Assembly: GCA_964016885.1 (NCBI GenBank)
Contig: OZ024763.1
Coordinates: 24,118,001 to 24,182,000 of the forward strand
DNA from: Eledone cirrhosa
Taxonomy: Eukaryota
Direction: 5' to 3'
DNA: 64,000 nt
Shown: positions 1,503 to 52,030 of the stretch, piece by piece
Layout: each line of letters starts with the position of its first letter
Numbering within the stretch: position 1 is the first letter of the stretch
Program-made: the position numbers and the translations under genes
Notes under the pieces: model-generated
What the model was told of the DNA's origin: nothing
Database searches by the model: none
What the model saw: only the letters and a program-made list of their open reading frames with translations

Positions 1503-1614
1503 TGTAAAAGGTAAACAGAAATAACACAATCAGTACAGTATATGGAAGGGATATATTAGGTTAACACTTGATATAGCAGGAAGAGGGTCTTAACATTTCG
1601 GGCGCTAGTCCTTC
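1503..1614 (-). mobile_element. Hammerhead-bearing element family A, 5'-truncated within the core
   Basis: Matches 12223-12335 and 41108-41222; minus strand reads GAAGGACTAGCGCCCGAAATGTTAAGA...CCTTTTACA then (TA)n. Confidence 0.75.
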
Positions 1615-1639
1615 TGATAAGGGGTGCCTTTTTACTGTG

Positions 1640-2415
1640 TCTTCTACACGACCACTTTACAGTGTGGACTGGGTGCTCTTTTGTTGTGACACCTACACGA
1701 CCACTTTACAGTGTGGACTGGGTGCTCTTTTGTTGTGACACCTACACGACCACTTTACAGTGTGGACTGGGTGCTCTTTTGTCGTGACACCTCCACAACC
1801 ACTTTACAGTGTGGACTGGGTGCTCTTTTGTCGTGACACCTCCACAACCACTTTACAGTGTGGACTAGGTGCTCTTTTGTCGTGACACCTCCACAACCAC
1901 TTTACAGTGTGGACTGGGTGCTCTTTTGTCGTGACACCTCCACAACCACTTTACAGTGTAGACTGGGTGCTCTTTTGTCGTGACACCTACACGATCACTT
2001 TACAGTGTGGACTGGGTTCTCTTTTGTCGTGACACCTCCACAACCACTTTACAGTGTGGACTGGGTGCTCTTTTGTCGTGACACCTCCACGACCACTTTA
2101 CAGTGTGGACTGGGTGCTCTTTTGTCGTGACACCTCCACAACCACTTTACAGTGTGGACTGGGTGCTCTTTTGTCGTGACACCTCCACGACCACTTTACA
2201 GTGTCGACTAGGTGCTCTTTTGTCGTGACACCTCCACGACCACTTTACAGTGTGGACTGGGTGCTCTTTTGTCGTGACACCTACATGACCACTTTACAGT
2301 GTGGACTGGGTTCTCTTTTGTCGTGACACCTCCACAACCACTTTACAGTGTGGACTGGGTGCTCTTTTGTCGTGACACCTCCACAACCACTTTACAGTGT
2401 GGACTGGGTGCTCTT
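1640..2415. repeat. 49-bp satellite array 1 (~16 units)
   Basis: Unit ACCACTTTACAGTGTGGACTGGGTGCTCTTTTGTCGTGACACCTCCACA/G; starts at 1651, 1700, 1749. Confidence 0.97.
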
Positions 2416-3079
2416 TTTGTTGTGTCACCTACACAGTGGACGAAAATGGGAGGATGGAGTAGGGTGTGTGCAGTGGGGTGTACCTTGGGTTAAGAGGTGC
2501 CTACCAACTGTAGGTTAGTAAGCAAGGGGTGGCGGGTCTTCTGTACAACTGTATGGCGCCAAAGATCTCATATATACATGCATATATACACGTATTTATA
2601 CACATACATATAGACACACACATGTATGCATACACATACATGTACACAGACATATATATACATGTATATATATATATTTATGTGTGTGTGTGTGTCTTTA
2701 TGAGAGTGCATATAGTTATACATAATTAAAAGGACAAGTGTGCATGGTGGTTAGTGTGTGTATGCATGTGCATGTGTATGCAAGTATATGTGCATGTGTG
2801 TGTTTAAGCCTGCAACTGAGTGTGTTTAGGCTTGTATGTGTGTGTGTCTAAGCCTACATAAGTGTGTGTGTGTGTGTGTGTGTGTGTGCGTGTGTGTGTG
2901 TGTGTGTGTGTGAGACATTACAGAATATAAACATCTGTTGGGGAAATGTAAATAATACTTAACCTGTGGGGTAGGGCCGGGAGTGATGGGGTAGGGTTGT
3001 GTGGAGGTTATTGTTGCCTAGCAACACATCTCACTTGTTTGAACATCTGCCTCTTCCCCCACCTCTCTCTGTCTCGCTC

Positions 3080-3506
3080 GTGCACACACAGTCATACACA
3101 CACGCTTACTCATACACAAACACAAAGTCATACACACACACATATATATACACACACACATATATATATACACACACACATATATACACACACACATATA
3201 TATATATATACACACACATATATATATATATATATACACACACACACACACACATATATACACACACATATATATACACACACACACATATATATATATA
3301 TATACACACACACACACACACACATATATATATACATATGTATGTCACACACACACATATATATATATACGTACAGACATATATATATATGTACACACAC
3401 ACACATATATATATGTACACACACACATATATGTATGTACACACACACACACACATATATATATATATATATATATATATATATATATATATATATATAT
3501 ATATAT
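3080..3506. repeat. (CA)n/(TA)n compound microsatellite
   Basis: Direct inspection. Confidence 0.95.
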
Positions 3507-3924
3507 GAAAAAAATGATAAAGGAGAACAATAGACTATAACAATGGTTTATTAGTGTTGGAAAAGATGTTTAATGTTTCAGACTGTAATCCTTCATTGGA
3601 AGATAGAAATAATGATAAAAAGGAAAACAGATAAGAATTAAAAGAAAAAGATGGAGAGGAAGCATGAGTTGCTATTAGCTTCCTGATACAATATAACTAC
3701 ACTAAATCAACCTGTTAGTTCTATCGTTACTTTGGTATATTATTGTGTGTTAGATTTTGCCTCCCACAATGTTCGATTTGTCAAGCTATTTAAACGTATG
3801 TTATTACTCTAAGGACCTATCTTATCGAGTGCTTTGCTAACTCATCATTTCATATAAGTAGGCCGAATTTGCTTGCAAACCGCCAGAGATTTGATTTTAC
3901 TAAATATCCAATTATATACATATA

Positions 3925-4090
3925 TATCATCGTTTATACCTTCCACGCTAGCATGGGTTAGATGGTTTTGTTCCATTTGATACGGGATCGGTCAAGAGAA
4001 CGTGTCTCGCTTGTACGGAAGTGTCTCTGGCAGGTTTATTATGGCTGAATGCCCTTCCTAACACCAACCACATTTACAGTGTGGACTGGG
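3925..4090 (-). mobile_element. 3' fragment of the same SINE family
   Basis: CTTCCACGCTAGCATGGGTTAGA...GAATGCCCTTCCTAACACCAACC, reverse complement of the SINE tail. Confidence 0.7.
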
Positions 4091-4111
4091 CACCCTGTAT
4101 ATATATATATA

Positions 4112-4223
4112 TGTAAAAGGTAAACAGAAATAACACAATCAGTACAGTATATGGAAGGGATATATTAGGTTAACACTTGATATAGCATGAAGAGGGTCTT
4201 AACATTTCGGGCGCTAGTCCTTC
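4112..4223 (-). mobile_element. Family A element, duplicate of 1503-1614
   Basis: Near-identical to 1503-1614 with the same truncation point. Confidence 0.75.
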
Positions 4224-4239
4224 TGATAAGGTGTGCCTT

Positions 4240-49149: not shown

Positions 49150-49255
49150 AAATAGACTCAGTATATAACTGGTGTTTTATGTTATCGACCCTGAAAGGAT
49201 GAAAACCCAAGTTAAAAACCTCGGCAGGATTTGAACCCGGAAAGTAAGGGCCGCA
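49150..49255 (-). mobile_element. Meta-domain-like SINE fragment
   Basis: Minus strand has B box GGGTTCAAATCC followed by TTTCATCCTTTCAGGGTCGATAA. Confidence 0.6.
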
Positions 49256-49424
49256 ATATAGCAATGATTAACAGTTACTCCGTCGAATATATATATTTTT
49301 GTTTTTAAAATCCAAATTCAATAAACAGACCAGGATTTTTTCATTCTGAGGATTGAAAGCAAAATCTTTTGCTTTTAAACCACTGGTAAATGGAATAATT
49401 GCCTTATGTTGTTTATTACATAAC

Positions 49425-50175
49425 TATATATATATATATATATATATATATATATATATATATATATATATATATATATATATATATATACATATATACA
49501 CACACATATATATACGGTATATATATACATATATATGTATATACATATGTATATGTATATATACATGTATATGTATATATGTATATATACATGTATACGT
49601 ATATATGTGTATATATATATATATATATATATATATATATATACACATATATACGTATATATACATGTATACGTATATATATATATATATATATATACAC
49701 ATATATACGTATATATACATGTATACGTATATATATATATATATATATATATATATATACACATATATACGTATACATGTATATATACATATACATGTAT
49801 ATATACATATATATATGTATATATACATATACATGTATATATACATATACATATGTATATATACATATACATATGTATATACATATACATGTATATACAC
49901 ATATATGTGTATATATATACATATACATGTATATACACATATATATGTATATATACATATACATGTATATATACATATACATGTATATATACATGTATAT
50001 ATATATACATTCACGCACGCACACATGTATATATACATATGTATATAATAGCTATATATATATATATATATATATATACATACACTACATATACATACAC
50101 ACAGATACGTACATACATACACACATCCATACATACACACATACATCCATCCATACATACACACACACGTGTATG
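49425..50175. repeat. (TA)n/(TACA/TATG) microsatellite
   Basis: Direct inspection. Confidence 0.92.
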
Positions 50176-50499
50176 CATGTGCGCCTACCCATTAAAGAGG
50201 GGACAGAGCCCATCTGCCCTTCACGCTAACAAGGCCCACAAAACAACAAAGGATACATTAGCAGGACCTCTATATGGTCCACTGTATGTGCTAGAAACCG
50301 CAGCTAAAAACAAGTACGAGTTTCCTTATCATCAGAAATGTGGAAGGAAGGAACATGGTTTTGTAGTAAGAATGAATGTACAGCACAAAAGGATAGGCGA
50401 TGGTCACGGCTGGAAAGCGTTTGTGGTCATGGATGGAACTAAATAGTAATAACAACAATGGTTTCGCATGTTTGTGTGTGTTCTTTTATTCTTTGACCC

Positions 50500-51285
50500 A
50501 CGCACATAGACACACACACACACACATACACACGTACCCACCCCCACCACACCACCACCACACACACACGTACACACACACACACACACACATAGACTCA
50601 CACACACATAGACTCACACACCCACATAGACACAGACACATATAGACACTACACAGACTCAGACACATATACATGTACACACTCAGGAATGAACACGCAC
50701 CCAAACACACAAGCAGATACATACGAACAAACACACACACACACACAAGGACATATGTACACACAAACACCCAAATACACACTCGAACACACAAGCAGAT
50801 ACACAGACACATGAACACACACACACAAGCAGATATACATGCACACACGCATGAATGAACACACACATGCACACACACACAAGCATATACATACGGACAC
50901 ACAAGCAGATACATTGGGACACACACACACACACACAAGCGGATTCATATGCATACACGCATGAATGAACAAACATATGCACACACAAACACCCAAATAC
51001 ACACACGAACACACAAGCAGACACACACGCATGAACGAAATACACGAACACATAAGCAGATACACACGCATGAACGAACACCCACACACACACACAAGCA
51101 GATATACATGCACACACGCATGAATGAACACACACATTCACACAAGCAGATACATACGGACACACACACAAGCGGATTCATATGCATACACGCATGAATG
51201 AACACACACACAAGCAGATACACACGAGCACACACAAGCGGATATACATGCACACACGCAAGAACGATCACACACACACACAATA
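50500..51285. repeat. CA-rich degenerate minisatellite
   Basis: Recurring CACAAGCAGATA and CACGCATGAATGAACAC. Confidence 0.85.
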
Positions 51286-51707
51286 TATATCTAGCTGTTG
51301 AAACGGCATTTTTCATTTATATATATTCATTTATATATATACACACACACATTTATATATAGCGCTGTATAATATTATAAATATATATACGGTATATTCT
51401 ATATGCACTATATATACAATACATAAACACATGCACAAGTAATATATACGAATAACACACACACACACACACAACATATATATATATATAATTTATAAAT
51501 AATATGTAAGTAGTATGATGATGTATGTATAAATCATAGGCATAAATAATATATACACACTATATAAAATAATACATATAAATATATATTTATATACATT
51601 GTGTATATATATATATATATATATATATATATATATATGTGTGTGTGTGTGTGTGTGTGTAGATTCTTTAATTATTAAATATATACATACTGTATATATA
51701 TATATAT

Positions 51708-51878
51708 AACGAAGGAAATGTAGTAAGGAACCAGGTGGACCATAACGCACCAAAGTACTCAATACTTCGGGGAGTAGAGTGGGTAATAGGAACGAGTAAG
51801 ACCCCGACGGCTGAGCTCAAGCCGTTTCGACGGCTAATTCTGTCCAGAATTAGCCGTCGGGGTCTTACTCGTTCCTAT
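51708..51878 (-). mobile_element. Family B element with a complete hammerhead three-way junction lacking CUGANGA
   Basis: Minus strand: ...AAGACCCC-GACGGCUAAUUCUG(GA)CAGAAUUAGCCGUC-GAAA-CGGCU(UGAGCUC)AGCC-GUC-GGGGUCUU... Confidence 0.8.
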
Positions 51879-51898
51879 ATATATATATATATATATAT

Positions 51899-52030
51899 AG
51901 GTATATTCCGGGTTGAATCGGAGGTAACCACAGTAAGTAAGGTACTCAATACACAGCAGAGTATAAAAGTTTTATATAGATGAGATTCTACAAGACTAGA
52001 ACTGTTTCATTCTTTAGAAATCATCAGGAA
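51899..52030 (-). mobile_element. Family E element with a degenerate hammerhead
   Basis: Minus strand CUGAUGA-U-UUC(UAAA)GAA-U-GAAACAGUUCUAGUC; shares GTATTGAGTAC with family B; (TA)n on both sides. Confidence 0.55.

Follow-up and report, generated by a model that had tools for sequence, protein, structure and literature searches.

Closest described systems

Two groups of described elements come closest to the repeats treated here, the Penelope-like elements (PLEs) and the retrozymes of animals that lack long terminal repeats (non-LTR retrozymes). The repeats lie in a 64,000-nt stretch of the 3.0-Gb genome of Eledone cirrhosa (contig OZ024763.1, positions 24,118,001–24,182,000; hereafter the window), where several families place a predicted hammerhead ribozyme upstream of a 3' end that abuts (TA)n. 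What is said of the literature draws on parts of the publications cited. In the account of Craig et al. (2021; PMC8557442), the Hydra clade of PLEs combines an endonuclease (EN) domain of the GIY-YIG type at the C-terminus with DKT, RW[KR] and CxCX5C, carries canonical hammerheads and inserts into (TA)n in almost all families; Naiads have an N-terminal EN, are described there without canonical hammerheads and are represented in cephalopods by remnants only. Partial tandems and inverted 5' copies are, according to the same source, normal for Penelope elements. Cores of the U3-A8 type and opposite-strand hammerhead pairs 100–700 bp apart were already reported by Cervera and de la Pena (2014; PMC4209133). 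Frangieh (2024) described a two-start 'tail' that arises from two internal start sites of reverse transcription, a signature presented as unique to Penelope elements, as well as cleavage of AT-rich DNA and an insertion in vitro that was independent of hammerhead cleavage.

For non-LTR retrozymes, Cervera and de la Pena (2020; PMC7229834) reported tandem units with type I hammerheads that are expressed as circles, and considered PLEs a strong candidate helper. Li, Clavereau and Pollet (2026; 10.64898/2026.07.22.740005) built on co-occurrence and on homology to the pseudo-LTRs (pLTRs) of PLEs, with mechanisms still to be resolved. As the enzyme that moves animal retrozymes, both papers name PLEs only as candidate or model. 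No published account of the present families was found under octopus hammerheads, retrozyme insertion at microsatellites or octopus Penelope elements, with Repbase, Dfam and supplements outside the scope of that search; the supplements of Craig et al. (2021) and the library of Bonar (2026; PMC13282606) may already contain some of them.

Families of the window and scope of the search

The explanation that we hold with high confidence is that A, B, E and G represent PLE 3' ends truncated on the 5' side, with reverse transcriptase (RT) and GIY-YIG 0.5–3 kb upstream in longer copies at other places in the genome, and that C and K are non-LTR retrozymes without an open reading frame (ORF), likely copied by the same kind of enzyme. 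A first-pass annotation, made from the sequence, had described about five non-coding families of one design, A to E, as TA-targeted, hammerhead-bearing retroelements of the Penelope type, some truncated and some non-autonomous. This core of the proposal is upheld; taken as a whole, both the observation and its interpretation hold in part, and most of the pattern is known PLE biology in a new genome.

Families were detected by masked self-BLAST of the window, with later mapping by longer references. Self-BLAST recovered the five copies of A and six of B counted before, as well as the two-copy groups (38731–39685; 42802–43072) and E (51904–52031); the labels C and D used here are possibly not identical to the earlier ones. 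Further families of the same layout are G (three pieces), K, J, N, a D-like piece and the degenerate F. Copy number does not equal insertion number, as the C pair and the D pair are each a single fold-back insertion, and the 98% identity of A1 and A2, which extends to matching flanks, suggests a local duplication. The absence of a Penelope ORF from the window was confirmed by tblastn (E<=0.01, no match). For each family search, the best 40 candidates genome-wide were scored, out of first-look totals of 1,650 (A), 2,587 (B), 2,348 (C), 841 (D), 998 (E), 386 (G) and 2,258 (K/F). A GIY-YIG search of the genome gave 10,596 candidates, and since all 150 that were scored exceeded the cut-off, PLEs are abundant in this genome.

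Families linked to RT and GIY-YIG

Upstream extension, proposed in the first-pass annotation as a way to find either RT and GIY-YIG ORFs or tandem retrozyme monomers of 200–400 nt, led to such ORFs at A, B, E and G and to tandem units at C and K, of 541 and 619 nt instead. The label 'non-coding' is thus wrong for A, B, E and G, whose domain order is RT, then EN, then hammerhead. From A, the walk passes a truncation staircase and reaches GIY-YIG 564–630 nt upstream in 7 of 15 loci, on the same strand and with no intervening (TA)4+ run. EN lies 820–1,097 nt upstream of B in 4 of 25 loci. It is reached from E across a 3' untranslated region (UTR) of 2.3–3.2 kb in 5 of 15 long fetches, as well as in L162 (fetched loci carry the prefix L), and from G, with about 1.8 kb in between, in all four fetches, as well as in L322.

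The A-linked ORF has an RT with DKG and YIDD, a CX4CxxC linker and a C-terminal EN (L086, L094, L166). The ORFs of B, E and G carry DKT instead of DKG (L171, L313, L319) and a CxCX5C linker ahead of EN (L167/L168, L308/L309, L319/L323/L162); RWR, an N-terminal motif of the RWK type, is present in E (L319), the only family for which that region was recovered. The B, E and G element copies examined are broken, none having an intact full ORF. Their homologues are proteins of about 700 aa, with matches in a coral, a bryozoan and a sea cucumber, and the full-length ones have DKT in 29 of 30 cases and DKG in 0 of 30. As judged by motif, A is of the Neptune type and B, E and G are of the Hydra type, and the window copies of all four are 5'-truncated 3' ends of known kinds of element.

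The 3' UTR of E consists of dinucleotide repeat for 59–68% of its length and contains 26–37 (TA)5+ runs in 4 of 4 copies measured (L311, L319, L323, L326), compared with two such runs in the UTR of G and none in those of A and B. The earlier suggestion that the elements help to propagate the TA arrays finds its one support in E. Such a microsatellite-filled UTR would be one way to lay down fresh TA targets, by a retroelement that carries its own target sequence.

Several candidate links were rejected as separate insertions, owing to TA runs between the parts, opposite orientation or an ORF with its own 3' end: E-EN9 (L115), E-EN8 (L118), C-EN6 (L108), C-EN1 (L025) and D-EN11 (L151). Among the fetched loci, Neptune-type ORFs, one with an open frame of 938 aa, were also observed in L021, L032, L035, L036, L044, L052 and L054; their 3' UTRs carry a U3-A8 hammerhead core about 100–230 nt ahead of (TA)n, and several look young. 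A further minimal-hammerhead family that ends in (TA)n (L064, L077, L079, L091) stands beside an RT fragment in L091 and is absent from the window. The window copies of the ORF-linked families are as follows.

1503..1614, minus strand: A1, Neptune-type Penelope 3' end, truncated within the hammerhead core
4112..4223, minus strand: A2, like A1, 98% identical with the same flanks
12223..12442, minus strand: A3, minimal hammerhead with an exact core (12341) and a palindrome as helix III, (TA)n 120 nt on
12776..12914, plus strand: A4, core at 12792, mutated stems
40979..41222, plus strand: A5, core position 3 mutated
10596..10736, minus strand: B1, Hydra-type element 3' end that starts in hammerhead loop II
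15444..15637, plus strand: B2, fold-back copy, 5' portion an inverted arm
28647..28731, minus strand: B3, rearranged short 3' piece
41473..41520, plus strand: B4, final 48 nt of B
42652..42749, plus strand: B5, starts at the predicted cleavage site, which is rare within B
51709..51875, minus strand: B6, fold-back copy
51904..52031, minus strand: E, Hydra-type 3' end with a whole predicted type I hammerhead, core 52027
52294..52412, plus strand: G, from a second element of the Hydra type (its 3' end), core 52312
11217..11285, plus strand: diverged G piece, 3' half, 80%
41368..41449, minus strand: G piece, 3' half

3' junctions and predicted hammerheads

Junctions were scored in genome copies as (TA)3 that starts at most 8 nt from the 3' end. 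By this measure, 36/51 copies of A, 109/126 of B, 21/28 of C, 43/62 of D, 66/78 of E, 91/112 of G and 16/23 of K abut TA. The repeats are thus genuine and their 3' junctions enriched for (TA)n, at 69–87% of copies per family versus a background of 5.9% of 20,000 random positions in the same loci (10.1% in the window). Among by-catch copies only, the figures are 10/16 (A), 68/84 (B), 13/19 (E) and 37/53 (G). TA-bound ends are not confined to these families: among controls, the 3' ends of another repeat abut TA in 9/14, those of a LINE in 1/6 and the 5' ends of a SINE in 3/43 (LINE and SINE, long and short interspersed nuclear elements).

A strict descriptor of type I hammerheads recognises representative copies of A, B, C, D and E, and gave 0–2 hits per 2,000 resamplings of each. 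The predicted cleavage triplet is GUA in C and E, GUC in B and K, and AUA in G. Within the window, only three sites satisfy it, at 38980 (minus), 39354 (plus) and 52027 (minus); in A3 (12341, minus) and G (52312, plus) the core is exact and one stem cut-off is missed. The core of B is of the U3-A8 type with a long helix II, and its 5' part is retained in none of the B copies of the window, as CTGACGA at 15457 belongs to an inverted arm. The spacing of 90–180 nt between core and 3' end proposed for all families applies to the long 3' ends of A, D and E (120–160 nt from core start); those of B and G fall just beyond it at about 185 nt, and outside it lie C (245/333), K (225 nt, counted from the predicted cut) and E at its short end (some 60 nt). 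An Rfam scan of the whole window at E<=5 was set aside as uninformative, since the 150 rows listed, of 686, were all microRNA models on microsatellites.

How the short copies may arise

Families B, D, E, G and C have two 3' ends, 45–88 nt apart, which resembles the two-start 'tail' of Penelope elements; A and K have a single one. At the opposite side, 5' ends within 3 nt of the predicted cut were found in 0/16 copies of A, 2/84 of B, 1/13 of E and 1/54 of G, that is, in 4 of 167 by-catch copies, and few window copies keep a whole hammerhead. With 5' ends off the predicted cleavage site and so few whole hammerheads, the stumps are not ribozyme-cut RNAs, and the description of the short copies as ribozyme-processed fails. 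A cluster of G 5' ends at -11 was not used, as it is probably a paralogue that aligns from there.

Inverted arms are frequent in B (79/126), D (28/60), E (26/63) and G (36/113). In B, 61 of 79 turning points lie at +41 to +58, at or just past the loop of the long helix II, and in E, 21 of 26 lie at -8 to 0, in helix I; BLAST end effects could move these positions by a few bases. The positions point to snap-back of the cDNA at the ribozyme hairpins as the probable origin of the inverted arms. Such snap-back would account for the many B copies, the majority, in which just the hammerhead's 3' half is left.

Family C, a closed 541-nt unit

Family C has no ORF. Its unit is 541 nt long, and all family sequence in 33 loci, a set from which the self match and one duplicate were excluded, maps within one unit. 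More than 600 nt on one strand is present in 27 of these loci, fold-back in 26, and arrays reach 4.4 units; L161 has four cores spaced 541 nt apart, and L097, L099, L107, L108 and L382 have two or three cores on one strand. Similarity between the flanks of different loci is due to other repeats at varying offsets. The 3' ends fall at unit positions 245–249 (22 ends) and 330–333 (31 ends), which accounts for 53 of 59, and 56 of 59 touch TA. In the window, C is represented by one insertion with two arms:

38731..39222, minus strand: C left arm, unit 300–541 then 1–249, core 38980, 3' end at (TA)n
39223..39685, plus strand: C right arm (same fold-back insertion), unit 411–541 then 1–333, core 39354, 3' end at (TA)n

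Subfamilies at about 83% identity (25 loci) and 63% identity (20 loci) share these 3' ends with C and, in copies of sufficient length, its closed layout too; an ORF adjoining the unit in a shared way was found in none of these 25 and 20 loci. C is a young family, its copies being 98–99% identical, and has a GC content of 39%. The C lineage as a whole appears to have kept the closed form and the predicted ribozyme across a divergence of about 37%.

An alignment of 27 rows supports the predicted hammerhead. In it, 92% of pair cells are paired, with 21 double-change cells compared with 7.3 in shuffles; in helix I the paired share is 96%, and three of its pairs show double changes, while slid controls are paired at most to 58%. 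Since related sequences can outscore a shuffle without any structure, the weight lies on the slid control and on core conservation. On this comparative evidence, C has a predicted type I hammerhead whose structure is conserved through compensatory changes in three subfamilies. By its genomic features the family is a non-LTR retrozyme, and its junctions point to likely mobilisation by a Penelope element. Contigs of the sequencing runs X1, X4 and X5 cover parts of C and are uninformative on expression.

Family K, a closed 619-nt unit

Family K behaves in a similar manner, with an ORF-less unit of 619 nt, a tandem period of 619–621 nt in L200 and L202, and a GC content of 36%. The 3' end lies at unit position 210 in all 20 loci (one at 213), and tandem copies and wrap-around also occur in relatives at 89% and 70% identity. 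The predicted core, of the U3 type, varies only at positions 7 and 8 (14 aligned rows, by eye), and helices II and III, likewise read by eye, are predicted to be long and helix I to have 4 bp, next to a GUC site. K is likely a second retrozyme with the behaviour of C, and its hammerhead is a prediction. The window holds one piece:

3707..3917, plus strand: K, last 210 nt of the 619-nt unit; this copy is without the predicted atypical hammerhead

Proposed mechanism

As a first step, the GIY-YIG domain would nick (TA)n and prime reverse transcription downstream of the hammerhead, from a single fixed site or from two; of this step, the fixed 3' ends and the TA flanks are observed. Most copies stop early. 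Many would stop and snap back at the hammerhead hairpin, which would give the inverted arms. In autonomous elements, the hammerhead would cut a tandem precursor RNA without defining the short copies. C and K, in turn, would be transcribed as multimers, cut to unit length by the hammerhead, probably circularised, and copied in trans for more than one round. The strongest version would make C and K parasites of Penelope elements that travel as circular RNA and are still mobile: a Hydra or Neptune protein would take the 541- or 619-nt circle made by the hammerhead, target-prime it at (TA)n from two fixed starts within it and copy it by rolling circle; we rate this version slightly below an even chance.

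Several observations weigh against these interpretations. On the ribozyme side, no hammerhead was found by Rfam in the window or in 10 loci at gathering score, nor in C or K at E<=10, and G and K fail the strict descriptor, G passing a looser one only. In C, the first pair of helix II is missing from 18 of the 27 rows, and a core motif had served to select these rows (of 41 matches, 3 proved spurious and 11 similar C1/C2 sequences were omitted, which left 27 in the alignment); in K, whose ribozyme is a by-eye prediction, an A-A mismatch closes helix II. Concerning the link to PLEs, Pfam at E<=0.01 gave no name to any of five ORF fragments, the clade assignment uses motifs alone, and A rarely folds back (2/51). 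The 3' ends of a tRNA-derived SINE also abut TA in 17/35, a figure that may be inflated by the SINE's own (GAT)n tail. With regard to C and K as circular parasites, no helper element was identified for either, scoring of the best 40 could miss an ORF-bearing master, and no sequencing runs recorded as RNA are listed with C. Moreover, units of C within one insertion differ at 0–6 positions per 230 nt, on average 1.4 (13 pairs) versus 2.7 between insertions (92 pairs), and unit variants alternate in L161; these differences suit a linear multimer as template no less than a circular monomer.

Alternative explanations

The alternative that survives best, although we regard it as unlikely, is that C and K are pLTRs of unsampled autonomous Penelope elements and that their tandems are the usual partial ones. 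Partial tandems and inverted 5' copies are indeed usual in Penelope elements in the parts of the literature drawn on here, and the 33, 25 and 20 loci examined are few among more than 2,300 C-type candidates. However, walks of this kind from A, B, E and G arrived at an ORF in 16–100% of the loci drawn for each family, whereas no C locus examined has shared non-unit sequence beside the unit, arrays extend to 4.4 units and three subfamilies are closed.

The reading closest to the first proposal, in which every family would consist of short RNAs, non-autonomous and cut by their ribozymes, that follow a single new design, appears highly improbable. It would account for the common layout, the missing ORFs of C and K, the unlinked D and the start of B5 at the predicted cut, but the continuation of A, B, E and G into ORFs refutes it for these four, and it is at odds with the staircase of 5' ends and with the rarity of cut-site starts. 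Nor is the shared design a new class, as hammerhead, short tail and (TA)n are the published 3'-end layout of Hydra and Neptune elements. That C and K spread as DNA, by satellite-like amplification or extrachromosomal circles, with TA flanks that mirror microsatellite abundance, is hardly credible, for although (TA)5+ makes up about 17% of the window and SINE ends abut TA too, the strand-specific fixed 3' ends, variable 5' ends, fold-backs and covarying predicted ribozyme fit reverse transcription.

Family D, minor families and other features of the window

Family D shares about 1 kb of AT/TG-rich sequence upstream. Neither an ORF link nor a wrap was found among the matches listed for 69 loci, and three upstream walks ended without an ORF; D is probably the 3' end of another Penelope-like element. 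A D match in L282/L325 was rejected as low-complexity, the ORF there ending in a G-like 3' end. For F, the first search retrieved K instead, and the second returned only old matches, at 69–90%. In family N, about 110 nt separate the two halves of a hammerhead-like core, and fuller copies may have a helix I of 7 bp; there are 22 matches in fetched loci, some of them folded back.

42802..42935, minus strand: D long-tail arm, hammerhead 3' half; no upstream ORF found in the genomic loci fetched
42938..43072, plus strand: D short-tail arm (same fold-back insertion), core 42960 with one change
49335..49426, plus strand: D-like paralogue, degenerate core, (TA)n at end
10752..10842, plus strand: old D 3' tail, 76%, inverted beside B1
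40598..40633, plus strand: J, 3' tip of a further GIY-YIG element, EN about 350–480 nt upstream in four loci
52050..52260, minus strand: N, further repeat that ends at TA; core hammerhead-like, helix II of great length as judged by eye
3508..3640, minus strand: F, old family, degenerate minimal hammerhead whose tail runs to (TA)n

Arrays of (TA)n that extend over as much as 8.7 kb occupy 28754–37451, 38175–38729 and 39682–40571, with a gap of 200 N at 37974–38173; their lengths may be inflated by assembly. Inserted in the long array is a LINE ORF's 3' end (35661–35990, minus), which has a short tandem tail and no hammerhead, and two further repeats end in (TA)n at 10396–10545 (plus) and 48616–48790 (minus), with 10 and 7 matches in fetched loci. 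The tRNA-derived SINE with the (GAT)n tail is present at 1082–1395 and 11314–11635 (Rfam tRNA, 35 bits). Satellites of 47–49 bp fill 1647–2435, 4235–9485 and 13204–15107; their unit resembles an internal segment of the local SINE, which matches satellite-adjacent sequence at 80–92%. A LINE of 5.7 kb with two ORFs stands twice, head-to-tail on the minus strand (16272–21956 and 22215–27898), in copies that are 99.8% identical and may represent a recent tandem insertion or an assembly duplication; the ORF2 frame of 1,166 aa is open in both, and (GATA)n-like repeats flank them. We take this LINE (16272–27898) to be Tx1/L1-like. From 52700 to 64000, the window is a C/T-rich low-complexity repeat tract with a GC skew near -0.77.

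Significance

Being young, small and furnished with the Penelope tail signature, C offers a ready substrate for trans-mobilisation assays. If the reading of C and K as circular parasites is true, the insertions would provide junction-level evidence of animal retrozyme integration, and the hammerhead hairpins would double as the snap-back points that make Penelope inverted repeats.

Comparison with known systems

Families B, E and G resemble the Hydra clade in their C-terminal GIY-YIG, DKT, CxCX5C, hammerhead, (TA)n insertion and 5' truncation. In contrast to that clade as portrayed in the parts of Craig et al. (PMC8557442) drawn on here, where whole elements are generally below 3 kb, their 3' UTRs alone measure 0.85–3.2 kb; the UTR of E is mostly microsatellite, and B has a U3-A8 core and a long helix II. 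Family A matches the Neptune clade (Craig et al., 2021; PMC4209133) in the CX2-5CxxC linker, DKG, C-terminal EN and minimal dimer-type hammerhead, left as single motifs in truncated copies; it shows no difference of kind from what is described there and is a new family in this genome. The comparison with Naiads made at first is mistaken. The (TA)n preference, truncation and inverted copies are shared, but Naiads are described without a canonical hammerhead, the EN of A, B, E and G follows the RT, and none of the linked ORFs has the Naiad layout; the matches here are Hydra and Neptune.

C and K agree with the metazoan non-LTR retrozymes, as described in the parts of the literature used, in their ORF-less tandem unit, a GC content below 45% and a size within the reported 51–972 bp. 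C shares the type I hammerhead as well, as a predicted one, and that predicted in K is atypical. Unlike the retrozymes reported there, both occur as dispersed insertions of 1–4 units with fixed 3' ends, (TA)n flanks and fold-backs. While PMC7229834 and Li et al. (2026) argue from shared hammerheads, co-occurrence and pLTR homology, the present case is built on junctions, and no parent pLTR was found. The junctions of C add to the evidence for mobilisation of retrozymes by PLEs beyond what is put forward in those two sources.

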